A stretch of DNA of 64,000 bases from contig JBILFA010000003.1 of NCBI GenBank assembly GCA_044351795.1, positions 2,275 to 66,274 on the forward strand, read 5' to 3'. The DNA comes from Bdellovibrionota bacterium (GTDB lineage Bacteria > Bdellovibrionota_C > UBA2361 > OMII01). Positions 17,207-46,175 of this stretch are shown piece by piece (positions within the stretch are counted from its first letter, which is position 1; each line of letters starts with the position of its first letter). The notes beneath the pieces were generated by a model, which ran no database searches, was not told the DNA's origin, and worked only from the letters and a program-made list of their open reading frames with translations. A program made the position numbers and the translations under genes.

Positions 17207-17211
17207 GAAGC

Positions 17212-27480: not shown

Positions 27481-27891
27481 ATTCTTATATCTTAAGAGCT
27501 TGTAAAAAAGCATAAATTCGCTTGGTTAAGGCGCTATTGATATTGCATGTGCATTAAAAAGGCAAGCTCAATCATTTGAGAAATGTACATGACCTGAGTT
27601 GAGGAGGGTCAACGACGATCGGTTCCGGTGGCCCATCGTCTATAGAAATAAGGAGGCTTTTCGAGGGGCTTGTAGGATAAACCGTACGAATTACGAGAGG
27701 GTCTAATGCAAAGGTAAAGCTATGGGAGGTATGTATTAAATTTATAAACGAGCAATAAGGCTTTCGCGCCTATACTATTGGAGAGCAAGCTCCCGTGAGG
27801 CGCGGCGGATGCTGGGCTACCTTTTTTAGGTTATACAGAGGTCGACAAAGGCGCTCTTGGAACAGTGGATTTCATCAACAAGGTTTATTTC
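27481..27891. promoter_or_regulatory. divergent promoter/leader region (fur-TBDR vs sulP-can)
   Basis: 411-bp AT-richer spacer between divergent operons. It contains a 9-bp imperfect hairpin (27613-27640) and a GC-rich segment ending in TTTTTT (about 27815-27828). No operator could be called confidently. Confidence 0.35.
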
Positions 27892-29475
27892 ATGAGCAGC
27901 CGTTTATTTAGATTTGATTTCATCAAACAAGACGTCGCGGCTGGATTCGTTGTTTTTCTCGTTGCGCTTCCCCTATGTCTCGGTATCTCACTTGCTTCAG
28001 AGGCCCCGCTTTTGTCCGGAATTATAACGGGTATCGTAGCAGGCGTGGTCGTGTCGCTCCTCTCCGGTAGCGAGCTGAGTGTGAGCGGTCCTGCCGCAGG
28101 GCTCACGATGACGGTGATTATGGGACAACGCGCAATAGGATCCTTCGAAGGGTTCTTGGTTGCAGTCGTCCTATCCGGCCTCATCCAGGTTGTTATGGGG
28201 CTTGCTCGCACGGGAACTTTGGCGGCGCTTTTCCCGACCAGCGTGATCAAGGGGATGCTGGCCGGGATCGGTATCATCATCATCATCAAGCAGATACCAC
28301 ACGCGTTGGGATGGAACGAACGGTTTGATGTTGCGGAGAGCCTTTTCAGTGCGGTCAATTCAAGTGAGACCTTTATCTCCTGGGTGTTCTCCGCGCGGCA
28401 CTTCGTAAGTTTTGGAGCTGTAATCGTTTCGGCTTTTTCGGTAGCTCTTCTCTTGGGTTGGGAGGTGCTTGCGGGACGAGGTATCAAGTTCTTCAAGCTT
28501 GTTCCCGGGCCTTTGATGGCCGTCGTAATGGCGGTAGGTATCAACGAGCTTTTCAAGGCGTTTGTCCCTGAGTTTGCCCTCACTGCGACCGCAGGCCAAC
28601 TTGTCTCGTTGCCCGACATCTCCGGAGTGAAAGACCTTTTCGCGGCGACCTCTCGGCCCGATTGGGGATTGCTGACCAACCCTGCGGTTTGGACAACGGC
28701 TGGAGTCGTCGCACTAATTGGTAGCATTGAGACCCTTCTATGTCTCGAGGCTACCGATAAGCTCGATCCCCTGCGGCGCGTCTCTCATCCGAACCGCGAG
28801 CTTGTGGCGCAAGGCCTCGGAAATATGATTGCAGGTGCTCTCGGAGGGGTGCCGATGACCTCCGTTATCGTGCGCAGTAGCGCAAACGTGTATTCAGGCG
28901 GTCGCACTCGACTGTCTTCATTTGTTCACGGTGTCCTGCTCCTTGTGTCAGTGGTAGTGATTCCAATGATCCTCAATCTCATCCCGCTAGCAGCATTGGC
29001 TGCCATCCTCATATTGGTGGGGTACAAACTGGCAAACGCACAGCTTTTTAGGAAGATGTTCAAGATAGGCTCAGATCAGTTTCTTCCGTTCATCGTCACT
29101 GTCGTAGCTGTCGTAGGCACGGATCTCCTAACGGGTGTATTGATAGGAACCGCAGTGGGCCTCATGGTCGTGCTGCGCATGAACTACCATGCGGCGTACA
29201 CTTTGGTGCACGAGGATAATAATTACCTCATCCGCTTCGCAAAAGACGTGACGTTCGTCCAAAAGATGAAGTTGAAGCGAGAGCTGGCTCGGGTGCCGGA
29301 TGGTGCCTCTATACTGATCGACGGAGGAGGGGCGATGTTCATCGACTTCGATATTCTCGAGATCCTGAATGACTTCAAGGCTTCCGCAGAAGATCGAAAT
29401 TTAACCATCCAGGTGCGAAATTTTCGTCCCTCACAGTTCAGATTGTTCCCGTTAACCGATGCAGGAGGTGTTTAG
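27892..29475 (+). CDS. SulP-family anion (bicarbonate/sulfate) transporter with STAS domain
   Basis: 'FIKQDVAAGFVVFLVALPLCLGISLAS' is the SulP N-terminus. About 11 TM helices. The C-terminal STAS-like region is 'YLIRFAKDVTFVQKMKLKREL...ILIDGGGAMFIDFDILEIL'. Confidence 0.9.
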   Translation: MSSRLFRFDFIKQDVAAGFVVFLVALPLCLGISLASEAPLLSGIITGIVAGVVVSLLSGSELSVSGPAAGLTMTVIMGQRAIGSFEGFLVAVVLSGLIQVVMGLARTGTLAALFPTSVIKGMLAGIGIIIIIKQIPHALGWNERFDVAESLFSAVNSSETFISWVFSARHFVSFGAVIVSAFSVALLLGWEVLAGRGIKFFKLVPGPLMAVVMAVGINELFKAFVPEFALTATAGQLVSLPDISGVKDLFAATSRPDWGLLTNPAVWTTAGVVALIGSIETLLCLEATDKLDPLRRVSHPNRELVAQGLGNMIAGALGGVPMTSVIVRSSANVYSGGRTRLSSFVHGVLLLVSVVVIPMILNLIPLAALAAILILVGYKLANAQLFRKMFKIGSDQFLPFIVTVVAVVGTDLLTGVLIGTAVGLMVVLRMNYHAAYTLVHEDNNYLIRFAKDVTFVQKMKLKRELARVPDGASILIDGGGAMFIDFDILEILNDFKASAEDRNLTIQVRNFRPSQFRLFPLTDAGGV

Positions 29476-30104
29476 TGGATTCATACAAGAGACTACTCTT
29501 GGCCAATAAAGCTTGGGTCAAAGAGAAGCTGAGCCTGGACTCCGACTACTTCGAGGATCTTGCGCGAGAACAGAAGCCGGAGTTTTTGTGGATCGGATGC
29601 TCGGATAGTCGAGTGCCTGCGGAGGAGATCACCGGAACCCAACCGGGAGAGATATTCGCGCATCGCAACATCGCCAATCTCGTGAACCCTACGGACATCA
29701 ATCTACATAGCGTGCTTTCCTTCGCCGTGGAGTTTCTCAAGGTAAAGCACGTTATAGTGTGTGGGCATTACGGGTGTGGAGGTGTAAAGGCGGCGATGTC
29801 ACGGCAGCGCTTCGGAATCCTCGACGAGTGGCTGCGTCAAATCAAGGACGTCTACTACACTCATAGACACGAACTCGACGATGTTGGAGATATCAACTCT
29901 CGAGCGGACCGATTGGTTGAGCTGAATATTCATGAGCAGGTGCGCAACCTCATGAAGACCAAGGTCATCCAAAAGGCGTGGCACGAGGAGCAGAGGCCGA
30001 TTGTTCATGGCTGGGTCTACAGTATGAGCGATGGGATCATCAAAAATCTGCACAAGGTTGAGCCTGGTGCTCAAATGCACGAGATATTTCAGTTTGATTT
30101 TTAA
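29475..30104 (+). CDS. can: beta-class carbonic anhydrase
   Basis: 'GCSDSRVPAEEI', 'FAHRNIANLV' and 'VCGHYGCGGVKAA' (Zn ligands C, H, C). The GTG start overlaps the sulP stop by 1 nt. Confidence 0.9.
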   Translation: MDSYKRLLLANKAWVKEKLSLDSDYFEDLAREQKPEFLWIGCSDSRVPAEEITGTQPGEIFAHRNIANLVNPTDINLHSVLSFAVEFLKVKHVIVCGHYGCGGVKAAMSRQRFGILDEWLRQIKDVYYTHRHELDDVGDINSRADRLVELNIHEQVRNLMKTKVIQKAWHEEQRPIVHGWVYSMSDGIIKNLHKVEPGAQMHEIFQFDF

Positions 30105-30158
30105 CGCCGAGAGTGGGTTCCATTTGCCGTACACGATGGGGGTTAGTACACTTCCGAC

Positions 30159-31118
30159 ATGCGGCGAGTAGTCCTCTCAGTTTTGGCGATTTCGATCGTG
30201 GCGGTAGTTTCGGTCGGATACCTCTTCTTGCGTGATATGTCCCGGTCGTTTCCCGATCTGCGAGAAGGTATCTATGTGGGGATGATCCACTTCCAGGCGC
30301 AGGAGAGTGGTATCCCCTTGTATGTGCAACGAGTATCGAACTCTCCGGTTTTGATCGTCGCCCTCGGCGACCAACAGGTCCCGGCTCAGCACGCACCGGT
30401 TCACGATCCCTCAGGTAGGAGCCGGTTGCCCCTCATCGTCAGCGGCGCTGACGCCCGTTTTAGGCTTACTGGTGCTCCGAAGGAAGATGGGCGCTACGAA
30501 GGTGAGTGCCTTGACCCGATACACAATAGGACAGGATCCTGGATTCTTCAGAAAGTAGAGATGAATGGAGAGATCGATCGGGAGGACGGCGACCTGCACA
30601 CGTGGATCGCAATGGTACAGGAGCTGCACAAACTAGAAGGCTCAATTGAGGCAGTAAAGCATAGGTACGATTCCCAAAAGGTTCAGATGGAGAATCTTAG
30701 TCCTTATCTTGTCGACGATGGGTCGCTCAGACAGAAAGCAACGTCTCGGCTCAGTAACACATCGAGCGCTCTGGACGAGGCTCGCGCAGATGTGGAGAAG
30801 GTGCAAGCAGAGCTCGACGCCACGATTCGAAACGTCGAACTTTCACAGCGAATTTCGCCAAAGGGGAGATTGGCGATCCTGAGTCGAGAGAGCTTACAAC
30901 GAGAGTCGCGTTGGATAGAGATTACCTTGAAATTGTTGGCTCCAGAGACAACCCCTGGTTTCGAGGAACAGCTCGAGCGCGCCTACCGCATAAAGGCAGT
31001 GCAGGATCAAATTGAAGCTGAACGTCGTCGTATGGAGGAGCTCGATACGTTGGATCGATACCGTGGTGTGGGAGCTGAGACTCCGAATGAGGAGGAGTTT
31101 TACCGTGGCTTGCAGTAG
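30159..31118 (+). CDS. membrane-anchored coiled-coil protein, unknown function
   Basis: N-terminal TM helix 'VVLSVLAISIVAVVSVGYLFL'. The C-terminal half is rich in heptad-like E/K/Q/L segments. Confidence 0.5.
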   Translation: MRRVVLSVLAISIVAVVSVGYLFLRDMSRSFPDLREGIYVGMIHFQAQESGIPLYVQRVSNSPVLIVALGDQQVPAQHAPVHDPSGRSRLPLIVSGADARFRLTGAPKEDGRYEGECLDPIHNRTGSWILQKVEMNGEIDREDGDLHTWIAMVQELHKLEGSIEAVKHRYDSQKVQMENLSPYLVDDGSLRQKATSRLSNTSSALDEARADVEKVQAELDATIRNVELSQRISPKGRLAILSRESLQRESRWIEITLKLLAPETTPGFEEQLERAYRIKAVQDQIEAERRRMEELDTLDRYRGVGAETPNEEEFYRGLQ

Positions 31119-31950
31119 ATCGCTCTTCTCTGTGTTGGTGCTCAGCGTAGGGCTCGCCTCGTCTGCGACAGGACAAGTGCGTTTGGCGACCCTCAATCAA
31201 TCGGTTCGTGTGGTAGGAGAAGCAGCTTCCGCATCGCTCGTTGTTTCGGACGATAGCGGCATAATCGGCGTCACCCCGGCGATTGTGGTAGGGACGGCAA
31301 CTAGGGATAAGGATGAGGTGCTGGTTGTCGGTAGACTGGCGCTTCCGGTTGCTGCCGAGCGACTTTCGTCCCTGGCGATTGTGATCTCTAAAAGCGGAGA
31401 GGTTGCTTCAAGCCTTCGTCAGATTCCATCCCTCAGCGCGGAGCCCGTGTTGCTGCTCGATAAGAGCTCAGTCGAGGCTCGCTTGCTCGAGCAACGCGAG
31501 ACACTCAAAAAATGGGAGACTCAGCTTCGCGCCCAAGAAGCAACATTCAATCGCCTTCAGGCTGACGCTGATGTGATCGCTAATGTGAGCAAGATCGTGA
31601 ATGTAGAGGACGATCTTGATGCTGCAAAAATCGATTCCCAGAGGCTCAAGAGTTCGCTCGAATTGGCTTCTAGACGCCTGGAGTCTCTCAAGATGCAGCC
31701 TGCTCCAACTAACTTCAAGCGCAGGGAGGCCGAGCTTTCTGAGCAGCTCAATGAGCTCTCTACAGCGCTCAAGACAACAGAGGCGAGCGCTCTTGGGCGT
31801 GTAGCGGCTGCCTCGGCTGAATTGAAGCAAAAGCTGGCCTTGATTGAGGCAACCAAGGGCAAGCAGATGGACGTGTTGAACGCTGAACTGGCCCGTGTTC
31901 GTCGAGAACGAGAACAGCTCGAGCGGGATCTTAGCGGTAGAGGTCGTTAG
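31087..31950 (+). CDS. secreted coiled-coil protein, unknown function
   Basis: Signal-like 'SLFSVLVLSVGLASSATGQ'. The C-terminal 170 aa are coiled-coil-like. The start (ATG 31087 or GTG 31105) overlaps the upstream gene. Confidence 0.5.
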   Translation: MRRSFTVACSRSLFSVLVLSVGLASSATGQVRLATLNQSVRVVGEAASASLVVSDDSGIIGVTPAIVVGTATRDKDEVLVVGRLALPVAAERLSSLAIVISKSGEVASSLRQIPSLSAEPVLLLDKSSVEARLLEQRETLKKWETQLRAQEATFNRLQADADVIANVSKIVNVEDDLDAAKIDSQRLKSSLELASRRLESLKMQPAPTNFKRREAELSEQLNELSTALKTTEASALGRVAAASAELKQKLALIEATKGKQMDVLNAELARVRREREQLERDLSGRGR

Positions 31951-31965
31951 GGAAACAAGACAAAG

Positions 31966-31985
31966 CAACGCATTCGCGTTGTTTT
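31966..31985 (+). terminator. putative Rho-independent terminator
   Basis: caacgc-attc-gcgttg hairpin (6-bp stem) followed by TTTT, 16 nt after the stop at 31950. Confidence 0.45.
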
Positions 31986-32165
31986 GCTGGGGGCGCTGCT
32001 GAATTTTAGTCGGAAAGATGTTGGAATAGGGACTTTTGTTCCTGAATTTCGTGGGGAGCCCCCCAAGAAAGGGGCTGGGTAGATACACTACCCCGAGTCT
32101 GCTTTATCGACAGCTCGCGCAACAGATCCTTTCCCGAGTTGCGTTTTTCTAATACCTTCAACACT

Positions 32166-32429
32166 ATGCACGTGGAGGCCGAGTCCGACTTCGAATCTTT
32201 AGTCCAGGCGGTCCGAGCTCGGAAGCTTGTCGAGCCCGCTATCTTCATGCTCGAGATGTGCAAGCCCCTAACCGGGTGTGCCCGGGAGTTTTACAAGGTG
32301 AGTGAGCCGCTGATACAGCTCTTTTTTAAACACACCCTTGGCCCAGCGATAGATCGGGTTTTGTCGTCCTCCCAGAACGTAGAGCTCTTGATTAGGCGAC
32401 TGGAAGATACGAGAGGGAGAGGAGCGTAG
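32166..32429 (+). CDS. small hypothetical protein (first gene of seven-gene cassette)
   Basis: 87 aa from the ATG at 32166. Its stop lies 2 nt before the next start. Confidence 0.4.
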   Translation: MHVEAESDFESLVQAVRARKLVEPAIFMLEMCKPLTGCAREFYKVSEPLIQLFFKHTLGPAIDRVLSSSQNVELLIRRLEDTRGRGA

Positions 32430-32431
32430 TC

Positions 32432-33277
32432 ATGGGTGGTCTCGAGCACGCAACTCCCGGCGTTCTGGTTCTGCTCGCGTTCGCGGTGTGGATGCTCTTT
32501 CGGCAATTGTCCCGGGCGACGAATGGTCATCGACACTTTATTCGTCGTATTCCCGGCGTGGATGCGATCGAGAGCGCTGTGGGTCGTTGTGCCGAACTAG
32601 GCCGGCCCGTTGTGTTTACGACAGCCCTTACGGATGTTGGACCGGTTCTTTTTGCCTGTCTCGGTGTCCTTCATTCGATAGCCAAGCGGACTGCGCAGTA
32701 CAAGTTAAAGCTGCTCATTCCTCAATACTCTCCCGAGGCGATGGCGATTGTAGAGGACACGGTGCGAGAGGCGTATACGTCGGTCGGTCGAGCAAACGCC
32801 TTCGATCCTCAGAGTGTGGTGTTCCTCTCAAGTGAGCAGTTCGCCTTCGCTTCGGGCTACATGGGGCTCGTTCATCGAGAGCGCGCAGGGGCAGCTTTCA
32901 TGTTTGGGGTGTTTGCAGGAGAAGCCTTGGTGTTGGCAGAGGCGGGTCAACAGGTAGGCGCTCGTCAAGTGGCAGCAAGTGTCAGTCCAGAGCAGGTCGC
33001 TTTCTTCATCTGTACCTGTGATTATACCCTCATAGGGGAAGAGCTCTTCAGTGCATCGGCCTATATGAGCAGAGAGTCGGTTCAAGTTGCTGCCTTGGCG
33101 GCCCAAGACAGAGTAAAGCTCCTCTTCGGTATCTTAATTCTTGTTGGCGTCCTGTGTGCTACAGCGGCACAATTTAAGCCTGTGTTTCAATCGTTGATGC
33201 CTCACCACCTTTTGGTCGCCGATTGGGCTACATGGAAGACATGGCTGGAGTTGCTCCTGACTAGTGTGAGGATGTAA
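32432..33277 (+). CDS. membrane protein, unknown function (N- and C-terminal TM helices flanking a soluble domain)
   Basis: 281 aa. TM helix 'GVLVLLAFAVWMLF' then 'IRRIPGVDAIESAVGRCAELGRPVVFTT'. C-terminal TM helix 'LLFGILILVGVLCATAA'. Confidence 0.55.
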   Translation: MGGLEHATPGVLVLLAFAVWMLFRQLSRATNGHRHFIRRIPGVDAIESAVGRCAELGRPVVFTTALTDVGPVLFACLGVLHSIAKRTAQYKLKLLIPQYSPEAMAIVEDTVREAYTSVGRANAFDPQSVVFLSSEQFAFASGYMGLVHRERAGAAFMFGVFAGEALVLAEAGQQVGARQVAASVSPEQVAFFICTCDYTLIGEELFSASAYMSRESVQVAALAAQDRVKLLFGILILVGVLCATAAQFKPVFQSLMPHHLLVADWATWKTWLELLLTSVRM

Positions 33278-33288
33278 GGACCAGACAC

Positions 33289-34383
33289 ATGGCCGGAAAC
33301 ATTGATCGACGAGCTGCTCTGATTCGTATCGCCACATTTTTGGGAGGACTATACTTTTTCCTGTATTTCCTCCTGCCGGAAGCAGTACTGAGCGAGCTTG
33401 GCATCCAGGAACGGCATGAATCGATCTCCAATGGATTTATCGTCGTTGGTGCAATGGCGATCGGCTTGGGATTGATCAATCTCGTAATGGGCCACGGAGG
33501 AAAAGTGGCTTTCAAGCGACCTGGCTGGGGTAACAGCCTGATACTTCTCGTCGCCTTGGTAGCGATGCTGGTCATTACCTGCGGTCAGTGGATGAATGGC
33601 CTGACTACTTCATACGATATTCGAGAAGTGCAGCTCATCGGTGAGTTCGCCAATCGAATCATTGAGGATGACGGTGACGCCGCGAGGCGCGAACGTGTTC
33701 TGCCGCTGCCTAAACGAATCTCTGCGTTGACGCAGTATACTGAAGCAAAGCTCCAGACTGTGACGGCATCGTTATCCGTCATTAACGCTTCCCCGCCGGA
33801 TGAATCGCGCAAGGCATTAATCGAGGAGTTGCAGAGTGCGGCTCGTGCGCTTCAGGGTCCCTTGGAACGGGTGAGCTCCGCAAACTTTTCCGGTTTTAAT
33901 GAAGCTAATCAGGCTGCGTTGAAGGAGTTCATCGAAGGAGCAAACCGACTCGGCGGTGCATATTCTGCACTGCGGCGATCGGATCAGTCTCTGACTCTCT
34001 TCTCCCGGTTATACGATGTGCTCTACAACGGGCTCTTTGTTCAACTCGGCGCAGCGATGTTCGCGCTTTTGGGGGTCTACATTGCAGCCGCCGCATACCG
34101 AGCTTTCCGAGTAAAGACACTCGAGTCAGCACTCATGATGACAGCCGCGGTTGTTGTCATGCTTGGGCAGATATCCGCTGTCTTTCTGATGCTCAATCTT
34201 GGGAGTTTCGGCGAAGATGCCTACCGAATCCTCCCAAAGGCTCGACAGTGGTTGCTTGAGGTTCCCAACAGCGCGGCCTTTCGAGCGATCCGACTTGGTG
34301 CCGGTGTTGCAGGGCTCATGTTGGCCATTCGGATGTGGCTATCGATAGAGTCCAAATCTTTCGGAGTTGGGAAGAAAGGATGA
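33289..34383 (+). CDS. polytopic membrane protein, unknown function
   Basis: 364 aa. Three N-terminal and about three C-terminal TM helices flank a helical soluble insert of roughly 130 aa. Confidence 0.55.
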   Translation: MAGNIDRRAALIRIATFLGGLYFFLYFLLPEAVLSELGIQERHESISNGFIVVGAMAIGLGLINLVMGHGGKVAFKRPGWGNSLILLVALVAMLVITCGQWMNGLTTSYDIREVQLIGEFANRIIEDDGDAARRERVLPLPKRISALTQYTEAKLQTVTASLSVINASPPDESRKALIEELQSAARALQGPLERVSSANFSGFNEANQAALKEFIEGANRLGGAYSALRRSDQSLTLFSRLYDVLYNGLFVQLGAAMFALLGVYIAAAAYRAFRVKTLESALMMTAAVVVMLGQISAVFLMLNLGSFGEDAYRILPKARQWLLEVPNSAAFRAIRLGAGVAGLMLAIRMWLSIESKSFGVGKKG

Positions 34384-35240
34384 TGGAACGGCGCCTTATA
34401 TATTTCATCATGATCGTCGCGGTAACCATACCGGTGATCTTTGAATTCTCATGGTCTCCCTCACGCCTCGTTTCTGCTGAGCGGATGTACGAAGTTGTCG
34501 AGAATGTGCCAGTGAACCAAGGAGAGGTTTCGTTGGTGTGGTTGGACTTTGGGCCCGGCACGATTGCAGAGAATCAGCCGCAAGCTGAAGTGATTCTTGA
34601 GCACCTTTTCCGTCGTCGTGTTCCTGTCGTTGTGCTCTCGCAATATCAGCTCGCTGAAGCTGTGCTGACCTCTATCCCTCGGGAGATAGCTTCCCGGCTC
34701 GAAAAAGAGATGCCTGGTGAGTCCTGGCGCTACGGGGATGCCTGGATAAATGCAGGATACCAGCCTGGCGGAGCTCAAATGATGCAGAATCTGGCGGCTG
34801 CGAAGGATCTTTCGAAATACTTCGGAAGGGACGTAAACGGTATGCCCTTCACGCACTACCCTAAGTTTGCTTCCATCGGTGGCATAGAACGTGTGAAGCT
34901 CGTTGCACAGGTTACCGGGCTTGTGGGTGTATTCGACACGATTATTCAATTCTTCCAAAAGAGCGGCTACCAGCCAACCATCGTCCATGGTTGTACATCT
35001 ATCACTATTCCAGAAGCTTACATCTTTCTCGATTCGAAGCAGCTTCACGGATTACTCGAAGGGGTGGCGGGCGCTGCATGGTACTCAGAGGTGCTCAAGC
35101 AACATAATCCCAAAAGCCGGAACGAGCGGCTGCTGGTGCGAAACACAGCGCTCATTATTGCTCACGTTGTTTTGATCCTGCTCATTGTGATCGGAAATGT
35201 AGTCGGCTTTGTTCGAGCCAGGAGGGGAAGCGATGGTTGA
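34380..35240 (+). CDS. bitopic membrane protein, unknown function
   Basis: ATGA overlap with the upstream stop. TM helix 'LIYFIMIVAVTIPVIF', a soluble domain of about 230 aa, then C-terminal TM helix 'ALIIAHVVLILLIVIGNVVGFV'. Confidence 0.55.
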   Translation: MMERRLIYFIMIVAVTIPVIFEFSWSPSRLVSAERMYEVVENVPVNQGEVSLVWLDFGPGTIAENQPQAEVILEHLFRRRVPVVVLSQYQLAEAVLTSIPREIASRLEKEMPGESWRYGDAWINAGYQPGGAQMMQNLAAAKDLSKYFGRDVNGMPFTHYPKFASIGGIERVKLVAQVTGLVGVFDTIIQFFQKSGYQPTIVHGCTSITIPEAYIFLDSKQLHGLLEGVAGAAWYSEVLKQHNPKSRNERLLVRNTALIIAHVVLILLIVIGNVVGFVRARRGSDG

Positions 35241-35952
35241 TGCTTCCATGTGGTCTTTGATTTCGGTCCTTCTTGGAGGTGTTGCCACTCTTGCGATCTT
35301 TAGTTTTCTCGTTCGCGAGAACGCGTTCTATCGGGCCTTCGAGCACACATTTATCGGTCTGGCTGCCGCGGTTTTGCCGGTGCTGACTATTCGCGATTTC
35401 TTGTGGCCCAAGATTCTGGAGCCGATGTTAGGCTTGAACGGTGTGGTGTATCCGGATGGAACGGTCTCGGAACCGTACCAGCCGCTCTATCTCCTCTACC
35501 TTGTTCCGATGGCGTTCGGCTCTCTCTACTATTTCCTATACTCCAAGCGCCATGCTTGGCTCGCCCGATTGGTGATCGGATTCTCACTCGGCTTGTCCGG
35601 GGCGCTTGCGATTCGAGGCTTCTTTGCTGAGGCGTTGCCGCAGATAGTGGGCAGTTTCAAGCCGCTCATTGTGATCTCGGAGGGCGAGTTCTCAGCTTTA
35701 GCGAGCATCAACAACATGATCTTCGTGGCGACGTTGCTGTTGGTGTTCAACTACTTTTTCTTCACCTTCGGTAAGGAGGGATCGCTTCAGGGTAAGATTG
35801 CACCTCTTGGTAGACCGCTCTTGATGGTGTGCTTTGGTGCCTTTTTCGGATCGACTGTGATGGCCCGTCTTGCTCTCTTGGTCGAGCGCGTTCAGTTCAT
35901 CGTTCGGGATTGGTTTTCGGCCATACTCCAAATAGTTGGGTACGGATCATGA
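35233..35952 (+). CDS. polytopic membrane protein, unknown function
   Basis: 239 aa from the ATG at 35233, after GGAGGGG. 8-nt overlap with the upstream gene. About 6 TM helices. Confidence 0.55.
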   Translation: MVDASMWSLISVLLGGVATLAIFSFLVRENAFYRAFEHTFIGLAAAVLPVLTIRDFLWPKILEPMLGLNGVVYPDGTVSEPYQPLYLLYLVPMAFGSLYYFLYSKRHAWLARLVIGFSLGLSGALAIRGFFAEALPQIVGSFKPLIVISEGEFSALASINNMIFVATLLLVFNYFFFTFGKEGSLQGKIAPLGRPLLMVCFGAFFGSTVMARLALLVERVQFIVRDWFSAILQIVGYGS

Positions 35953-37760
35953 TGAGAACGAAGCCTGACGATCTCAAAACGGTTCTGGTGACGGATTGTG
36001 GGTCTACGACGACCAAGGCACTTCTGTTTGAGAGACGAGAAGATCGCTGGCATCAGACATTTCGTGGTGAAGCCCCAACAACGGTAGAAGAGCCGGTTGC
36101 TGATGTGACGGTCGGAGCGCTCAACGCATTTAGCGAGGTGCAGGAGTTGAGTGGTAGGCAGATCCTAGGGGATGGCGAGCCGCCTTTTCTCGTGACCGAG
36201 CGAAATGCGGCAGACGGGATTGATCTCTACCTATCGACTAGTTCGGCCGGTGGCGGATTACAGATGCTCGTCGCCGGTGTCGTAGGTAACATCACGACTG
36301 AATCAGCCGAGCGAGCAGCGCTCGGCGCAGGGGCGATCGTCATGGATGCTGTATCGGCCGATGATGCGCGCGAGGATCACGAGCGTATCGAGCGTATCCG
36401 GCACATCAAGCCGGACATTGTGCTCCTGACCGGTGGGGTAGATGGAGGCTCTACGCAACACGTTGTCGAGATGGCCGAGATTCTGGTTGCCGCTGCGCCG
36501 CGCCCCCGATTTGGTAATACGCTCAAGCTTCCTGTTATCTACGCCGGTAACAAGGAGGCGGCTGCAGAAGTTGAGAAGATCCTCTCTCAATTTGCTCAGC
36601 TCGTCGTCGTGCCCAACGTACGGCCGATCGTTGAACGCGAGAATCTTGCACCGGCCCGAGAAGCGATACACGAGTTCTTTCTTTCGCACGTCATGAGCCA
36701 CTCTCCCGGCTATGGAAGGCTTATGTCCTGGAGCCCAGTTCCGATTATGCCTACGCCGGCAGCGGTCGGAGATGTCGTCGAGCGCTACAGTGCGACGAGT
36801 GGGTTTAATGTTCTGTGCGTCGATATCGGAGGAGCGACCACGGATGTGTTCTCGGTCTTTCGAGACAAAGTGGGCACCCCGACCTTCAATCGCACAGTGA
36901 GCGCTAATCTCGGCATGAGTTATTCGGTTGCAAACGTATTACTCGAGGCCGGTACCGAATCCATCAAGAGGTGGCTCCCATTCGAGATAGGCGATTCGGA
37001 GCTACGAGATCGCCTTCTCAACAAGATGATTCGTCCGACCTCCATTCCGCAGACAATCGAAGATCTCTTCGTGGAGCAAGCAGTGTGTCGCGAGGCGCTC
37101 CGATTGTCTCTCAAGCATCATCGCTCCCTTGCGGTAGGGTTGGAAGCTCCCCGAGAGAGGGGCATAGCGGACGTATTTCGCCAGTCGTCAGAGCGCTATG
37201 AATTGGTTGATCTCATGAAGCTCGATATCGTCATAGGGTCAGGCGGAGTCTTGAGCCATGCTCCGGATCGCATGCAAGCTGCTCTCATGATGCTCGAAGG
37301 TTTTGGTCTCGAAGGGGTGACGCAGCTATCCGTAGACTCCATCTTCATGATGCCGCACCTCGGCGTACTCTCTTCCGTTCATCCGGTAGCGGCCCAGCAG
37401 ATATTCGAGAACGATTGCCTCGTGCACCTCGGCTGCGGCGTTGTTCCGGTGTATCCGGCTAAATTGTCTGAATCATCCGTGCTGGCTGAGATCTTTCTCG
37501 ACTCGCAGCGAGTCGGTGAGGTTCGCACTAACGAGGTCGTGCGTATCCCAACACCGACACGCGGCACAGCTACGATTCGAGTGGTTCCCACGCGGCGTTT
37601 TATAGACGTCGGAGCCGGAGCGGGCGCTGAGATCGAGCGACGTATTGAGCTTGGTGAGTGCGGCATCCTGTGTGATGGGCGAAATCGGCCGATTGTACTA
37701 CCGCGTGAAGCGTTTCGTTCTCAAAACCAAGTGTATCGTAATCTAGGGTTGATTTCATAA
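35949..37760 (+). CDS. GlmL/MutL-family ASKHA-fold ATPase (glutamate mutase accessory protein-like)
   Basis: 603 aa from the ATG at 35949 (ATGA overlap). 'VLVTDCGSTTTKALLF', 'SSAGGGLQMLVAGVV', 'ERAALGAGA', 'PDIVLLTGGVDGG', 'MPTPAAV' and 'VLCVDIGGATTDVFSV' are collinear with clostridial GlmL as I recall it. Confidence 0.8.
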   Translation: MMRTKPDDLKTVLVTDCGSTTTKALLFERREDRWHQTFRGEAPTTVEEPVADVTVGALNAFSEVQELSGRQILGDGEPPFLVTERNAADGIDLYLSTSSAGGGLQMLVAGVVGNITTESAERAALGAGAIVMDAVSADDAREDHERIERIRHIKPDIVLLTGGVDGGSTQHVVEMAEILVAAAPRPRFGNTLKLPVIYAGNKEAAAEVEKILSQFAQLVVVPNVRPIVERENLAPAREAIHEFFLSHVMSHSPGYGRLMSWSPVPIMPTPAAVGDVVERYSATSGFNVLCVDIGGATTDVFSVFRDKVGTPTFNRTVSANLGMSYSVANVLLEAGTESIKRWLPFEIGDSELRDRLLNKMIRPTSIPQTIEDLFVEQAVCREALRLSLKHHRSLAVGLEAPRERGIADVFRQSSERYELVDLMKLDIVIGSGGVLSHAPDRMQAALMMLEGFGLEGVTQLSVDSIFMMPHLGVLSSVHPVAAQQIFENDCLVHLGCGVVPVYPAKLSESSVLAEIFLDSQRVGEVRTNEVVRIPTPTRGTATIRVVPTRRFIDVGAGAGAEIERRIELGECGILCDGRNRPIVLPREAFRSQNQVYRNLGLIS

Positions 37761-37764
37761 CGTT

Positions 37765-38883
37765 ATGGCGCAGGCATTCACCCCAGGTCTTACCGTTTCC
37801 TCGCGCCACACCGTGCAGCGTCGTCGTGAATTGCCGATAACAGGTGAGATATTGGTTTCACAGGGAGATATCGTCTCTCAAGAGCAGATAGTGGCCCGAG
37901 CGTATCTCGAGGGCGAGCTGCGTCTGGTACGAGTCGCCGAGAATCTGGGAATAGCACCTCAGGAGGTTGCTGGCGCCCTTCGAGTCTCTGTTGGGGCTCA
38001 GGTTCATGAGGGCGATGTGCTCGCGGAGGTCAAGGGATTGTGGGGATTGCTGAGGAGCACTGTTGCGGCTCCTATCTCCGGCGCTGTGGAGTTCGTTACG
38101 GATTCTACCGGTCACGTTGGTATACGAGCGGCGCCGCGTAAGCTAGAGCTATCGGCCTATCTCGCTGGTCAGGTAGTCGCAATAGAGGGTGCACGCTCGG
38201 TGGTAATTGAATCGGAGTCAGCTTTTGTCCAGGGGATCTTTGGCGTCGGAGGTGAGAAGATCGGTACGGTGAGGCTGCTCGAAGTGGAGCCAAGGACGGA
38301 GGTCTTGGCGTCTCATGTGCCTGCGACGGCTTCAGGAGCTATTTTGATCGGTGGCCACAGTCCGACCATAGATGCAATTCGTAAGGCGCGTGATGCGGGA
38401 GCGGTCGGGTTTGTTACCGGTTCGATAGATGACCGTACTTTGCGAGAGTATGTCGGCCGTGACATCGGAGTTGCTGTGACTGGCGATGAGAACATTTCAA
38501 TGACCCTCATCGTCACTGAGGGGTTCGGGCCTTTGCCGATGGGGCAGCGTGTGTGGGAGACCCTGCGAGCTATGAATGGGGCTCGCGCATCGCTCAATGG
38601 GGCAACGCAGGTGAGAGCAGGAGCCGTGCGACCTGAGATCTTGTCAGCGGCGAATGAACAGCAAGCCTCAAATGACGGGTCTTCTATCAGGCCTGGTGGA
38701 CTCGAGCGAGGCTCTAGGGTGCGCTTGATCCGCGTTCCTTTTTTTGGGCAGGTCGGAACAGTAGAAGAGTTGCCACACGATTTACAGCAGATCGAAACCG
38801 GTGCTTGGTCCCGAGTTCTCAAGGCGAAACTCGATGACGGGCGCTCTGTCGTGGTTCCTCGAGCAAACGTGGAGTTGCTGTAA
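37765..38883 (+). CDS. hypothetical protein with barrel-sandwich-hybrid-like N-terminus and KOW-like C-terminus
   Basis: 372 aa. 'GEILVSQGDIVSQEQIVA ... VSVGAQVHEGDVLAEV ... APISGAVEF' resembles lipoyl/biotinyl-type hybrid barrels. The C-terminal 'GSRVRLIRVPFFGQVGTVEEL' is KOW-like. Confidence 0.5.
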   Translation: MAQAFTPGLTVSSRHTVQRRRELPITGEILVSQGDIVSQEQIVARAYLEGELRLVRVAENLGIAPQEVAGALRVSVGAQVHEGDVLAEVKGLWGLLRSTVAAPISGAVEFVTDSTGHVGIRAAPRKLELSAYLAGQVVAIEGARSVVIESESAFVQGIFGVGGEKIGTVRLLEVEPRTEVLASHVPATASGAILIGGHSPTIDAIRKARDAGAVGFVTGSIDDRTLREYVGRDIGVAVTGDENISMTLIVTEGFGPLPMGQRVWETLRAMNGARASLNGATQVRAGAVRPEILSAANEQQASNDGSSIRPGGLERGSRVRLIRVPFFGQVGTVEELPHDLQQIETGAWSRVLKAKLDDGRSVVVPRANVELL

Positions 38884-39240
38884 GCTGCTGGCTTGCCGGT
38901 TCGGAGGTTTTACTGCAGAGAACAGGGAGAAATAAGCATCGTGGCAGATAGAAGTTTCACTCGAAGGGATAAAGTATTCTGTCGATCTATTGTGTGAATG
39001 TGGCATACGAGTAAATAAAATACGGCGAAGATAGTCGGACACGGAAGAACTTAGTTGTTTGCCAAACGAGTAGCTAAGGAGCACCTCGATTTGGTGTGTA
39101 AGTTCTTTGTGGGCTTTACAATTGAAGCGATGACACCAGACTTAGCAGAATACGAACGGCCGTAATGCAGAGAGCAGAAAGCTATTCACTTAACATGGTA
39201 GGCAGAAGTGCAGCCTAACGCTCGCCTACCCATCTTGTCG

Positions 39241-40602
39241 CTATCGAAAAAACTCTTCGTGCAAGGCTCTCACGCTCGGCTCACACGCGGCATCGTCGAC
39301 AATAATACTCAAGTTGATCTTGAGGTCCCCGAACGAGATCAGGTTTACCTTGATCCCTGCGCGGTGGAGTGCCGCAAACGTGCGTGGCAGCAGATCGTCG
39401 CAAGCGGCGATCTCGGTACCGACCACGCTTACAATCGCCTGTGAGGAGGATACTGAGACATCCCCGAGAATCGCGAGGTCCTCTTTAAGCGCAGGCGAAT
39501 ACTTCGAGCCGTCGTCCATAGTGAACGAAATACTAACCTCGGATGTTGCGATGAGATCGATGCTTACATGGTGTCGAGCCAGGATCTCTCCGAGTTGCCC
39601 TAGGAATCCGTGCGACATGAGCATGCGCGGCGTCGTAAGGCGCACTACGGTGATATCCTTCTTATAGGCGATTGATTTAAAGGGGTTTTCAGAGGAGGAG
39701 TGTCCTACCTCGATGAGAGTGCCTTTGCAGTCGGGGTTGAAGGTGTTGAGGATCCGCATAGGGATCTTCGAGTTGACGGCTGGGCGAACGCTAAAAGGAT
39801 GGAGCACCTTCGCGCCGAACTGCGAAAGCTCTGCCATCTCGTCATAAGAGATCCGCTCCAAAATGAAAGCTTTCGAAACGACCTTGGGATTAGCAGAAAG
39901 CACACCATCGACATCGGTCCAGATCTGAACTTCCGACGCACCGAGTGCACTGCCGATAAGGCTAGCGGAGTAATCCGAGTATCCGCGACCAACGGACTTG
40001 ATGATGCCAAGAGCTGTGTCACCGAAGTATCCAGGCACTATCGGCACATGTCCATGGTTTACCTGTTGTAGTTTCTCTCGGAAGAGGACCTCTATCTTGT
40101 CCCAATATTCGTCCGAGTCGTAGCGTAGGCTCGAGGGAACCATGTGCGCGGTATCGACGTACTCAGCGGGCAAGCCGAGCGAGTTGAGGGCAGCCACGAG
40201 CAGGTGTGCAGATAGGATCTCTCCTACCGCTATGATGGCGTCCTGGGAGCGTATCGGCAGATCCTGGATGATCCCGATGGCTGAGAGCAGGTTGGCAAGC
40301 TGCTGTAATTCCCTGTCGAGAGCCACTTCAAATTTGCTGCGCGCGGCGGTTGCGATGGCAGGCGAGTTGATGACCGCCAGATGTTTCTCACGAATTGCTT
40401 TTAGCATCTCATGGTCAACGATTTGCTCGGATGCAGCGCGGCTTGCAGCTTCCAGGAGCAGGCTCGTAACGCCGCTCATCGCACTCACCACCACAACAGG
40501 ATGAGAGTTGTCAGTCAGGGCGCTTCGTACGACAGGACACACCTGCTCGAGAATACTCTTGGCCGAGCCCATCGAGGTTCCGCCGAATTTCTGAATAATC
40601 AT
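39241..40602 (-). CDS. lysC: aspartate kinase
   Basis: 453 aa from the ATG at 40602. 'MIIQKFGGTSMGS' (KFGGTS). The kinase core contains 'VVVVSAMSGVT'. The C-terminal region has the length and position of tandem ACT domains. Confidence 0.9.
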   Translation of the reverse strand: MIIQKFGGTSMGSAKSILEQVCPVVRSALTDNSHPVVVVSAMSGVTSLLLEAASRAASEQIVDHEMLKAIREKHLAVINSPAIATAARSKFEVALDRELQQLANLLSAIGIIQDLPIRSQDAIIAVGEILSAHLLVAALNSLGLPAEYVDTAHMVPSSLRYDSDEYWDKIEVLFREKLQQVNHGHVPIVPGYFGDTALGIIKSVGRGYSDYSASLIGSALGASEVQIWTDVDGVLSANPKVVSKAFILERISYDEMAELSQFGAKVLHPFSVRPAVNSKIPMRILNTFNPDCKGTLIEVGHSSSENPFKSIAYKKDITVVRLTTPRMLMSHGFLGQLGEILARHHVSIDLIATSEVSISFTMDDGSKYSPALKEDLAILGDVSVSSSQAIVSVVGTEIAACDDLLPRTFAALHRAGIKVNLISFGDLKINLSIIVDDAACEPSVRALHEEFFR

Positions 40603-41715: not shown

Positions 41716-41798
41716 TTTCGACCTTCTTCAGAGCGGAGAGAAGGAAAGTGCAAGGGCAGTGATTGAAATCGACCAAGGGGCGCGCTAGAACACGGGTT

Positions 41799-42599
41799 AT
41801 GGGAACGGCTATCAAAGGGTCTATTGGGTTGTTTGACAGTGGATTGGGAGGCTTGACTGTACTGCGGGAGCTTCACCGTAGCCTTCCTTCCCAGAGCTAT
41901 GTCTATCTTGGAGATAGCGCGCGCACTCCTTACGGCACTAAGGGTAAAGAAACAATTATCCGTTATGCTCGTGAATGTGCCGGTTTTCTGTTGGAGCAGC
42001 AGATCGGCATCCTCGTTGTCGCATGCAACACCGCGTCGGCCGCAGCGCTCTCTGTGCTCGAAGCCGAACTCCCTATTCCTGTCATCGGTACGATTGAACC
42101 GGCGGTTCGAGCCGCGCTCGAGTCGACCCGTGGCGGAAGGATCGGCGTTGTAGGGACCAACTCTACGGTGTCCAGCGGGGTGTATGAGCAGGCGCTCTTG
42201 CGGCACGACAGCGATTTGACAGTTGTGTCGCAGCCTTGTCCGCTCTTCGTTCCTCTTGTCGAAGCAGGGATGGTGTCAGGAGAGATAGTCGATAAATTCG
42301 TAGAGATGTACTTCGCGCCGTTCAAGGAGAGCGGGGTCGACACCGTGATTTTGGGGTGCACCCACTATCCGCTGCTACTTGAGTCGATTCAAGCATACCT
42401 CGGCCCTAAAGTCGCCGTAGTAGAGTGCTCGCGGGCGATAGCTCGTGACGTAGAGGATCTCCTTGGCAAGCAGAGTGAGGGAGTAGTCTCTCTCGAAACT
42501 AAGTATTTCGTGACCGACGAGGTAAGTAAGTTCAACTACCTTGCGACAGCTTTTCTTGGGAAACGAGAGGTTCAGGCCGTACGTATCGAAAGCTTGTAA
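41799..42599 (+). CDS. murI: glutamate racemase
   Basis: 'IGLFDSGLGGLTVL', 'YLGDSARTPYG', 'VVACNTASA' and 'ILGCTHYPLL'. Both catalytic Cys contexts are present. Confidence 0.9.
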   Translation: MGTAIKGSIGLFDSGLGGLTVLRELHRSLPSQSYVYLGDSARTPYGTKGKETIIRYARECAGFLLEQQIGILVVACNTASAAALSVLEAELPIPVIGTIEPAVRAALESTRGGRIGVVGTNSTVSSGVYEQALLRHDSDLTVVSQPCPLFVPLVEAGMVSGEIVDKFVEMYFAPFKESGVDTVILGCTHYPLLLESIQAYLGPKVAVVECSRAIARDVEDLLGKQSEGVVSLETKYFVTDEVSKFNYLATAFLGKREVQAVRIESL

Positions 42600-46165: not shown

Positions 46166-46175
46166 CAAGGTTCTC

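Follow-up and report, generated by a model that had tools for sequence, protein, structure and literature searches.

A conserved seven-gene operon that pairs uncharacterised membrane proteins, including a DUF6754 protein, with a predicted ASKHA-fold ATPase in a Bdellovibrionota bacterium

Seven closely packed genes in a 64,000-nucleotide stretch of DNA from a Bdellovibrionota bacterium (the window) had been put forward, from the sequence alone, as a candidate undescribed system. This raises the questions of whether the genes form one unit and what this unit might do. Seven consecutive open reading frames (p1 to p7) were found on the + strand at 32166-38883, separated by 2-11 nt or overlapping by 4-8 nt. 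The junctions from p1/p2 to p6/p7 are, in order, +2, +11, -4, -8, -4 and +4 nt, and the sequence itself shows ATGA overlaps at 34380 and 35949 and a ATGGTTGA overlap at 35233. Independent public gene calls for an identical contig gave proteins of 87, 281, 364, 286, 239, 602 and 372 aa. A TTG at 32139 is a possible start for p1, for which other gene callers take the ATG at 32166. Between the preceding gene, up4, and p1 lies a palindromic, terminator-like hairpin on the + strand (31966-31989), in which CAACGC-ATTC-GCGTTG is followed by TTTTGCTG; it was read in the sequence, and a scan gave the same stem on the - strand. Downstream of p7, a 357 bp spacer (38884-39240) precedes a convergent aspartate-kinase gene. 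The sequence-only reading had described the frames, their spacing and both borders, and all of these were recovered here. Across 37-55 other loci per junction, the median projected gap between orthologous neighbours was -8 to +8 nt at all six junctions, and this tight spacing is far beyond chance. The stretch 32166-38883 is one real seven-gene operon.

Genomes that carry the labels of six phyla share the seven-gene set, which is arranged in one of three orders: p1-p2-p3-p4-p5-p6-p7, p1-p6-p7-p2-p3-p4-p5 and p2-p3-p4-p5-p1-p6-p7. The position of p1 is always directly 5' of p2 or of p6. When genome loci were anchored on p2, both p6 and p7 were present at 30 of the 34 with enough flank, and at least three of p2-p5 were present at 19 of the 25 metagenome loci anchored on p7. 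Identity between lineages was ~47-68% for p2, p5 and p6 in most loci, which, together with the invariant polar residues of p3 and p5, indicates strong constraint. Natural p4-p5 fusion proteins exist as well. The recurrence of the set, its three orders, the tight spacing and the fusions indicate one system, in which p1-p5 make up the membrane module and p6-p7 the soluble one. It could be argued that two or more unrelated gene clusters merely lie side by side in this genome, since a minority of loci show the membrane module or p6-p7 alone. However, the co-occurrence in both anchoring directions, the linkage kept through three gene orders and the p5/p6 junction (a 4-nt overlap here, with a median projected gap of -3.5 nt across 42 loci) effectively refute chance neighbourhood. 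Synteny confined to this genome, named beforehand as a finding that would speak against the proposal, was not what we observed, as the set is kept across phyla and survives rearrangement.

To place the individual proteins, p2 and p7 were covered by structure models and p3-p6 were compared by sequence alone. The 87-aa p1 (32166-32429, + strand) carries the conserved motif PAIFxLExxKPL...P...lfG...nvExLI, is present at 47 loci and has zero predicted transmembrane (TM) segments. p2 (32432-33277, + strand) is a DUF6754 protein (PF20539, 3e-75; 253 bits, cut-off 27), which settles the earlier question of whether the 281-aa protein would match a DUF family, and the domain is present in all listed p2 homologues. 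It has an N-terminal TM helix, a highly conserved core and C-terminal TM helices, and 45 of its positions are at least 93% identical among 90 orthologues. Its AlphaFold model, of moderate confidence (pLDDT 74), has a Rossmann-like core, for which Foldseek returned generic Rossmann-like matches only; residues 169-201, the most conserved stretch, are unresolved in the model. Elsewhere, p2 has PKD/Ig-like C-terminal extensions in some lineages and a 158-aa N-terminal extension in one lineage.

TM prediction and orthologue comparison showed p3 (33289-34383, + strand) to be a polytopic membrane protein with ~6 TM segments and a helical insert between TM3 and TM4. Conservation is high in the C-terminal half and low in the insert. 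Orthologues from other lineages span 222 to 645 aa in total length, and a profile search of the PDB gave weak helical-bundle matches confined to the insert. By the same approach, p4 (34380-35240, + strand) consists of an N-terminal TM segment, a ~230-aa α/β-looking domain and a C-terminal TM segment, with an HGC motif (203-205) conserved inside the cassette clade. Its family counts 1431 representatives at 50% identity, and the p4 part carried a Pfam domain in none of those scanned. Likewise, p5 (35233-35952, + strand) is a compact membrane protein with ~six predicted hydrophobic segments, whose invariant polar residues include N30, E37, Q137, R212 and R219; no PDB relative was found by profile search. 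In both p3 and p5, invariant polar residues lie in or near predicted membrane segments. The only Cys and His residues conserved at 93% or more are C196 of p2, H69 of p3, and H75 and C205 of p4. To assign topology, we used charge bias and the additional domains seen in other lineages. On this basis the p4 domain appears to be extracytoplasmic, and the same probably holds for both termini of p2 and for the insert of p3. Distant p4 homologues have zinc-ribbon extensions N-terminal to the first TM segment, and the N-terminus of p4 is therefore placed in the cytoplasm.

No Pfam or NCBIfam family scored above its cut-off for p1, p3, p4 or p5, Pfam scans with 26 orthologues per protein gave no recurrent family for p3, p4 or p5, and sequence profile searches with p2-p7 found no credible PDB relative. 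The sequence-only reading had been unable to place the four membrane proteins in any named family. This held in that no characterised complex was matched by Pfam, NCBIfam, PDB profiles or Foldseek with the p2 model, but p2 does belong to a named, if uncharacterised, Pfam family. A large non-membrane insert, which that reading ascribed to each of the four, was seen in p2, p3 and p4 but not in the compact p5.

The putative motor is p6 (35949-37760, + strand), a predicted cytoplasmic ASKHA-fold ATPase of ~603 aa in the PF13941 (MutL/GlmL) superfamily (4e-120, residues 12-490). TDCGSTTTK, DIGGATTD and GSGGV, the phosphate-1, phosphate-2 and adenosine motifs, are invariant; with these nucleotide-binding motifs intact, p6 is a predicted ATPase. 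Neither p6 nor p7 has a predicted TM segment, and both are therefore taken as cytoplasmic. The GlmL-type assignment made earlier stands at the level of the Pfam superfamily but does not extend to GlmL proper. The NCBIfam scores were 222 bits for GlmL (cut-off 475), 211 for Or-4 (cut-off 600) and 174 for TIGR01319 (cut-off 204), and p6 has an extra C-terminal domain of ~110 aa (about 490-603) past the end of the matched GlmL models (~460 positions). A true GlmL was ruled out on these grounds, and judged by sequence p6 is outside both the GlmL and the Or-4 subfamilies. It resembles GlmL/MutL (glutamate mutase) and Or-4 (ornithine degradation; PF13941, NF040745, NF040744) in the PF13941 match and the ASKHA motifs. 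In contrast to them, it is longer, has no B12 mutase genes nearby and has p7 as a constant partner, usually alongside the four membrane proteins. A match to MreB-like_C was sub-threshold only.

In its AlphaFold model (pLDDT 84.7), p7 (37765-38883, + strand) consists of N-terminal barrel-sandwich hybrid domains, a central α/β domain and a C-terminal KOW/SH3-like domain, with Foldseek matches at domain level only. The model and these matches confirm the barrel-sandwich/KOW protein read from the sequence. The α/β-domain motifs QGIFGxGGE, TEGFG and GATQVRAGAxRPE are universally conserved. Residues 52-134 align with residues 34-111 of E. coli RsxC, the RnfC_N domain (hhalign E 2e-4, probability 44%, ~75 residues), and the match to Pfam RnfC_N is weak. 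As in RnfC and NqrA, a barrel-sandwich domain of RnfC_N type would thus lie close to the N-terminal end of a cytoplasmic subunit beside polytopic membrane subunits. The cassette might accordingly be a redox-driven or ion-translocating complex resembling Rnf or Nqr, with p7 in the role of a cofactor-less NqrA/RnfC peripheral subunit, and in one clade p6-p7 adjoins the electron-transfer flavoprotein genes EtfBA. However, p7 lacks the NADH, FMN, SLBB and Fe-S domains, its full-length similarity to RnfC has no Foldseek support (probability just 0.10-0.12), and no conserved Fe-S or haem-type Cys/His pattern was seen. The cassette membrane proteins are unrelated to RnfD, RnfG, RnfE and RnfA, with p3, p4 and p5 likewise unrelated to RsxD, RsxG and RsxE, and there was no Rnf-Nqr Pfam match. 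We regard this kinship as highly improbable.

Each module is also found without the other nearby, so the ATPase module may act in its own right. No p1-p5 genes were detected within 10 kb of p6-p7 on five high-GC metagenome contigs (L132-L134, L139-L140). In four of these (L133, L134, L139 and L140; Pfam-confirmed in L133 and L139) the pair lies directly 3' of EtfB-EtfA. L139 and L140 also hold an ECF S-component-like gene, and ABC exporter genes follow p6-p7 in L133 and probably in L132. Conversely, a few genomes have the membrane module with no p6-p7 next to it. Accordingly, p6-p7 could be a self-contained soluble ATP-dependent unit, either chaperone- or reactivase-like or a hydantoinase-A-type enzyme, for which the membrane complex would be a client, a scaffold or a supplier of substrate (e.g. 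a channel with cytoplasmic trapping) and would not be powered by it. Residues of p7 that are conserved both with and without the membrane module are concentrated in the α/β domain, a pattern that an intrinsic activity would be expected to leave. The closest named relatives of p6, GlmL and Or-4, serve B12 mutases as accessory proteins. Foldseek matches of the central p7 domain were of RraA, PA-domain and isatin-hydrolase type, which we read as similar to the swivelling domain in the reactivase of diol dehydratase. The B12-enzyme reactivases DdrA/DdrB and EutA presumably offer a similar pairing of a ~600 aa ASKHA ATPase with a small α/β partner. However, profile searches did not connect the pair at sequence level with any reactivase in the PDB, and none of the genes nearby encodes a mutase, a hydantoinase-B or another enzyme that could be the client. 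Elsewhere among the sampled lineages, moreover, p6-p7 is membrane-linked: it stays with p1-p5 through two independent rearrangements, and p1 travels with p6. On balance, we consider a free-standing soluble unit somewhat unlikely.

Two accessory genes precede the operon. up3 (30159-31118, + strand) encodes a membrane-anchored protein with one N-terminal TM segment (residues 4-22) and no Pfam match; read by eye, its C-terminal half is coiled-coil-looking. up4 (31087-31950, + strand) has a signal-peptide-like N-terminus followed by a coiled-coil-looking region, and its start is uncertain: the ATG at 31087 gives a 32 nt overlap with up3, and the frame opens at 31012. They are kept upstream in 29 (up3) and 26 (up4) of 57 genome loci. 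The gap between up4 and p1 is variable (median 186 nt), and up4 is therefore probably a separate transcription unit. The wider flanks hold housekeeping genes. This chromosomal, non-mobile setting and the lack of plasmid matches ruled out a plasmid, and zero PADLOC matches ruled out a defence system. PTS-like and biotin-carrier readings of the cassette were also tried and rejected.

The conservation of up3 and up4 directly upstream, both membrane-anchored or secreted, would suit an envelope-spanning structural or mechanotransduction system akin to FtsEX, Tol-Pal or PilMNO, in which movements of the ATPase would reach periplasmic domains as well as up3 and up4, and would remodel or tether the envelope without transport. 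Such a system would also agree with the predicted location of the p4 domain and both p2 termini, and probably of the p3 insert, outside the cytoplasm, and the named host phyla are usually described as diderm. The concept, a cytoplasmic actin/Hsp70-fold protein with bitopic membrane proteins that have periplasmic domains, is presumably shared with PilM-PilN/O, FtsA and GspL. However, up3 and up4 occur in certain lineages only and lie at varying distances from p1, zero matches to Tol, Fts, Pil, Mla or Lol families were found, and the membrane partners did not match the PilN, PilO or FtsQ families. Furthermore, p6 belongs to the hydantoinase/GlmL branch, not to that of actin, FtsA or PilM, and is about twice the size of PilM, FtsA and GspL. 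We find an envelope system of this kind unlikely.

The data fit best with an ATP-dependent membrane-associated machine, and we infer that the cassette encodes one. More specifically, and tentatively, we propose an ATP-driven inner-membrane translocator or transducer with an ASKHA ATPase, not a P-loop ATPase, as its motor, and give this a little less than an even chance. In the proposed translocator or transducer, p2-p5 would form a hetero-oligomeric inner-membrane complex, and p6-p7 would dock on its cytoplasmic face, probably via the RnfC_N-like barrel-sandwich domain of p7 and via p1. By binding and hydrolysing ATP, p6 would power a cycle of conformational changes, and through this cycle a solute or a component of the envelope would be either transported through the inner membrane or acted on at the membrane. 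The p4-p5 fusions speak for physical coupling, and the p7/RsxC alignment offers an analogy for docking. In two unrelated lineages, SBP_bac_5 genes adjoin the cassette, with overlapping reading frames in one; this is a hint of transport that could be chance, because the family is very common. To our knowledge, no ASKHA-driven transporter has been described, and the mechanism would be without precedent.

DUF6754 (PF20539) is a family without a described function and was not mentioned in the literature searched. As far as we found, its constant partnership with p3, p4, p5 (usually also p1) and p6-p7 has not previously been described. The lack of a match to any characterised complex and the synteny conserved across phyla support the original interpretation of an undescribed system. 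On the comparisons made here, the cassette is a predicted two-module, seven-protein system covered by no described family. No described system matches this combination of an actin/Hsp70-fold ATPase with four membrane proteins that are uncharacterised.

The cassette occupies 32166-38883 of the window and comprises seven consecutive plus-strand genes, named p1 to p7 in window order: p1 (32166-32429, 87 aa, with an alternative TTG start at 32139), p2 (32432-33277, 281 aa), p3 (33289-34383, 364 aa), p4 (34380-35240, 286 aa), p5 (35233-35952, 239 aa), p6 (35949-37760, 603 aa) and p7 (37765-38883, 372 aa). All seven open reading frames were recovered at the positions previously read from the sequence, and the tight coupling claimed for them was borne out by the measured junctions, which are +2, +11, -4, -8, -4 and +4 nt from p1 to p7. 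Both ATGA overlaps, at 34380 and 35949, are present, and direct reading of the sequence gave the p4/p5 overlap at 35233 as ATGGTTGA. The predicted hairpin before the cassette corresponds to a palindrome with a T-rich tail at 31966-31989, and the convergent 357-bp spacer lies between p7 and an aspartate-kinase gene. A promoter and terminator scan gave a site count not above that of shuffled sequence, and a search for riboswitches or leader RNAs returned 0 Rfam matches within 29400-39400. GC content is uniform over the cassette region. Independent gene calls on an identical public contig are 87, 281, 364, 286, 239, 602 and 372 aa, and public sources give all seven products as "hypothetical protein" or leave them unnamed.

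The sequence-only reading could not place the four membrane proteins p2 to p5 in any named family. This stands for p3, p4 and p5, but p2, the 281-aa protein for which a DUF check had been proposed, belongs to a named family, Pfam DUF6754 (PF20539; 3e-75, 253 bits with the cut-off at 27, 15-250 of the 257 model positions covered), whose function is undescribed. No Pfam family was matched above cut-off by p1, p3, p4 or p5, and no weak family recurred among 26 orthologues each of p3, p4 and p5. Sequence profiles of p2 to p7 found no credible relatives in the PDB. One apparent match, of p4 to "P22" in PDB 8h2i (E 9e-13), contained no stretch that matched and was lost when a second p4 profile was used, so it was treated as a composition artefact. 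ABC, P-type and other known primary transporter domains were absent from all seven proteins in Pfam and NCBIfam. The expectation that the membrane proteins would match no described complex was thus upheld across the family libraries, the PDB profiles of p2 to p7 and the Foldseek searches with p2 and p7. Internal paralogy was also rejected, hhalign being blank for p2 against p4, p3 against p5 and p6 against p7.

The AlphaFold model of p2 (pLDDT 74) consists of an N-terminal transmembrane helix, a Rossmann-like α/β core and C-terminal transmembrane helices, with the most conserved stretch, 169-201, not resolved; Foldseek returned generic Rossmann-like matches only, none of them reaching E up to 1e-3. 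Homologues of p2 carry C-terminal Ig-like extensions (PKD or He_PIG) in two loci (L047:9911-12502 and L052:9809-13054) and, in a third (L112, 11119-12369), 158 additional N-terminal residues with a signal-like start. These extensions make it probable that both p2 termini lie outside and that the conserved core is inside or in the membrane. For p4, hydropathy and charge bias predict that both termini are cytoplasmic and that an α/β domain lies outside; zinc-ribbon domains ahead of the first transmembrane segment in distant homologues support a cytoplasmic N-terminus. A p4 profile search of 1.84 billion representative proteins yielded 1,431 relatives at E up to 1e-3, and no Pfam domain covered the p4 part in ten relatives scanned. 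Among the matches listed are four natural p4-p5 fusions (P0432, P0476, P0496 and P0508; 522-642 aa), and such joining into single polypeptides suggests that p4 and p5 act within one complex. Several distant members of the p4 family are elaborated in other ways: P0493, P0507 and P0511 have single or double N-terminal zinc ribbons, P0493 and the ribbon-less P0455 have long acidic tracts and repeated "PDWL" motifs, and these ribbon/PDWL members have AGV or AGI where the cassette clade has its HGC motif. In p3 the helical insert shows little conservation, and the full length of the protein varies from 222 aa to 645 aa across lineages.

The remaining two proteins, p6 and p7, have no predicted transmembrane segment. 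The earlier assignment of p6 to the GlmL/MutL-family ATPases holds at the level of the superfamily, with a match to Pfam PF13941 "MutL" of 4e-120 and 402 bits (cut-off 27) over residues 12-490, but not at that of the GlmL subfamily, where p6 scores 222 bits against the NCBIfam GlmL equivalog cut-off of 475 (NF040745). It also falls short of Or-4 (211 bits, cut-off 600) and of the TIGR01319 subfamily (174 bits, cut-off 204). Since p6 lies below every curated GlmL-type cut-off, it is, judged by its profile scores, a distinct PF13941 clade apart from GlmL and Or-4. The phosphate-1, phosphate-2 and adenosine motifs are intact (TDCGSTTTK, DIGGATTD and GSGGV) and invariant in 24 orthologues, and the protein is extended at its C-terminus by a further domain of about 110 aa. 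GlmL genes sit between or beside the glutamate mutase genes glmS and glmE, whereas the neighbours of p6 are p5 and p7, and the wider flanks of the window cassette hold SulP, carbonic anhydrase, aspartate kinase and MurI. A true GlmL or Or-4 protein was ruled out by the sub-cut-off scores together with the absence of mutase genes nearby.

The p7 protein matched barrel-sandwich families in Pfam below cut-off only (RnfC_N, E 0.0019; Biotin_lipoyl_2). In its AlphaFold model (pLDDT 84.7), the N-terminal half is all β, an α/β domain lies in the middle and a β-barrel forms the C-terminal part; Foldseek gave domain-level matches only, to Thermotoga maritima NusG (barrel-sandwich insert and KOW) and Spt5/NusG KOW domains, and for the middle domain to RraA, PA-domain and isatin-hydrolase-type folds. 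The NusG hits to the predicted structure agree with the barrel-sandwich/KOW architecture first proposed for this protein. A biotin or lipoyl carrier was ruled out, as the barrel-sandwich hairpin tip has no conserved modifiable lysine; the consensus has R where the window protein has K90, and other orthologues have A, V or R there. A PTS-like phosphorelay, with p7 as the EIIA-like, the swivel domain as the EI-like and p2 as the EIIB-like component, was rejected because H117 of p7 is conserved in one clade only. This histidine is invariant only in 24 close orthologues (at least 51% identical) and is replaced in L054, L106 and homologues found beside electron-transfer flavoprotein (ETF) genes; no EIIA chain was present among the 50 Foldseek matches listed for p7.

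Residues 52-134 of p7 align with the RnfC_N domain of Escherichia coli RsxC (hhalign, E 2e-4), with RnfC appearing among the Foldseek matches at a probability of only 0.10-0.12. No other RnfC domain was found in p7, although RnfC itself combines RnfC_N with NADH/FMN and Fe-S domains and NqrA has a four-domain fold; no Rnf/Nqr Pfam family was found in the cassette membrane proteins, and profiles of p3, p4 and p5 compared with E. coli RsxD, RsxG and RsxE gave hhalign probabilities <1%. An Rnf/Nqr homologue is unlikely, the RnfC_N-like segment alone matching and the membrane subunits being unrelated. A redox or Rnf-like reading has little support, because a conserved cofactor-binding Cys/His pattern is lacking; a search for conserved Cys/His clusters of the redox-cofactor type found none.

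The distribution of the cassette was surveyed with a p2 alignment in one genome per GTDB species, a scan that used peptide patterns from the type-A clade and was biased towards it, and reciprocally in metagenome contigs anchored on p7. The genome scan gave 57 loci, every one in a metagenome-assembled genome, under seven taxon labels representing six NCBI phyla (Bdellovibrionota, Binatia, Dadabacteria, Thermodesulfobacteriota, Planctomycetota, Victivallales and Chthonomonadales). The nearest genome locus, L001, is from a Bdellovibrionota metagenome-assembled genome, and freshwater lakes are the source of close relatives. In nearly all loci extending far enough, p2-p3-p4-p5-p6-p7 occur on one strand in the same order. 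Recurrence across phyla had been proposed earlier as a test, and the gene set does recur in genomes labelled as six phyla. ORF clustering placed p2 in 58 loci, p3 in 57, p4 in 53, p5 in 52, p1 in 47, p6 in 43 and p7 in 42, and the projected gaps have medians of -8 to +8 nt at each of the six junctions. In most loci outside the window's own lineage, identity is ~47-68% for p2, p5 and p6; such strong conservation is the usual mark of a core cellular machine. The set is also abundant in environmental data, where there are >3,700 p2 clusters at 90% identity and 1,431 p4 clusters at 50% identity.

Most long p7-anchored loci have the window order. Two rearranged orders retain all seven genes: p1-p6-p7-p2-p3-p4-p5, confirmed in L102, L111, L112, L119 and L128 and consistent with incomplete loci such as L105, L113 and L121, and p2-p3-p4-p5-p1-p6-p7, found in L123, L125 and L129. 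Both p6 and p7 are present in 30 of the 34 p2-anchored loci with enough flank, and at least three of p2 to p5 in 19/25 p7-anchored loci with enough flank. In a few genomes, p1-p5 are not accompanied by a neighbouring p6-p7 pair. A plasmid-borne location was ruled out, p2 and p7 giving no tblastn match, and so was a defence system, the seven proteins yielding 0 matches in PADLOC-DB at E up to 0.1. The context of the cassette is neither mobile nor defence-related, and the data establish a single, ancient, chromosomal system made of three blocks, [p1], [p2-p5] and [p6-p7].

On five high-GC contigs of 45-650 kb, p6-p7 are represented by homologues but p1-p5 are absent within 10 kb (L132:7902-11146, L133:7743-10978, L139:7749-10966, and also L134 and L140). 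Here p7 is longer, at 454-481 aa, and includes an additional barrel-sandwich insert (about 80 aa). EtfB-EtfA lies directly upstream of the pair in L133, L134, L139 and L140, an ECF S-component-like gene is also present in L139 and L140, and two ABC exporter genes follow it in L133 and probably L132. The ETF-context loci favour the main rival explanation, namely that p6-p7 have a soluble function of their own, whether chaperone-like, reactivase-like or enzymatic, with the membrane complex as no more than a partner. The conservation of p7 residues in both the cassette and the ETF contexts (QGIFGxGGE, TEGFG and GATQVRAGAxRPE) points the same way.

An ATP-driven mechanism joining p2-p5 with p6-p7 is the reading that we infer to be the most economical. 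In it, p2-p5 would form a hetero-oligomeric inner-membrane complex with domains on both membrane faces, to which p6, as a competent ASKHA ATPase, would be attached via p7 and via p1. The docking part of p7 would be the barrel-sandwich domain resembling the N-terminus of RnfC, and the whole would act as an ATP-driven translocator or transducer. Tentatively, such an assembly would represent an unrecognised class of machine, in which an ASKHA ATPase energises, via a barrel-sandwich/KOW adaptor, a four-subunit inner-membrane complex made wholly of families without described function. With similar reserve, it is conceivable that this class is a primary active transporter or trans-envelope transducer whose motor is not of the P-loop, P-type or rotary kind. 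We give this reading less than even weight.

Genes next to the cassette give weak hints of solute handling, if the adjacency of SBP_bac_5 genes is taken at face value; it could be chance or a substrate clue. These genes abut the cassette in two unrelated lineages, with neighbourhoods at L112:5595-7899, L111:5528-7896 and 15690-18039, and L023:17067-20680. The type-B lineage shows a chain of overlaps, from the SBP gene to a membrane ORF of 142-165 aa and from this ORF to p1. Downstream of p5 in L111 are OppB- and OppC-like permeases, as read from the sequence, without an intervening ABC ATPase gene, and in Binatia an SBP gene and a BPD_transp_1 permease gene are located downstream of p7. An SBP_bac_5 gene also abuts EtfB in L139 and L140.

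Upstream of p1, at a variable distance (median 186 nt), are two genes at 30159-31118 and about 31087-31950; by ORF clustering, the first is conserved in 29 loci and the second in 26. The two overlap (30159-31950) and encode a membrane-anchored and a secreted-looking protein, both without a Pfam family and each apparently with a β-rich domain followed by a coiled coil. Within 27865-30104, the end of a SulP-family permease gene coincides exactly with the start of a β-carbonic anhydrase gene (29475), a layout as expected for a bicarbonate transporter/carbonic anhydrase pair. At 20542-23516 are genes for a response-regulator protein and for a hybrid histidine kinase/receiver protein; upstream of the cassette, 17 related loci have a homologue of the former and 8 of the latter, and in L060 this pair of domains likewise lies upstream. 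Downstream of the glutamate racemase gene (41763-42599), a 758-aa protein (42621-44897) matches YhdP/AsmA/DUF748 weakly and below threshold, and may be a lipid-transport protein of the AsmA type. A minus-strand cluster at 44975-52660 encodes a MoxR-type AAA ATPase (46176-47192), a TPR protein (47176-49152), a transglutaminase-like protein (49146-51365) and two ORFs without a Pfam match (44975-46198 and 51332-52660), most neighbours overlapping.

No papers on "DUF6754" or "PF13941" were found in the searchable library, and searches there for GlmL and for ASKHA, glutamate mutase and MutL returned nothing relevant. As no family library or structure database linked the components to a described system either, we rate the cassette outside every known kind of system. 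That all genomic hits are metagenome-assembled genomes may explain the absence of an earlier description; given the bias of the genome survey to type-A sequences, hosts in culture may exist. Family models are lacking altogether for five of the seven proteins; of the other two, one is a DUF and one, p6, is an outlier of PF13941, itself a poorly understood ATPase family. The compact operon could be cloned for tests of complex formation. If an ASKHA ATPase does power the complex, this would be a new energy-coupling principle beside the ABC, P-type, rotary and secretion-type ATPases. Should this prove otherwise, DUF6754 still gains a functional context and four or five new protein families are defined.
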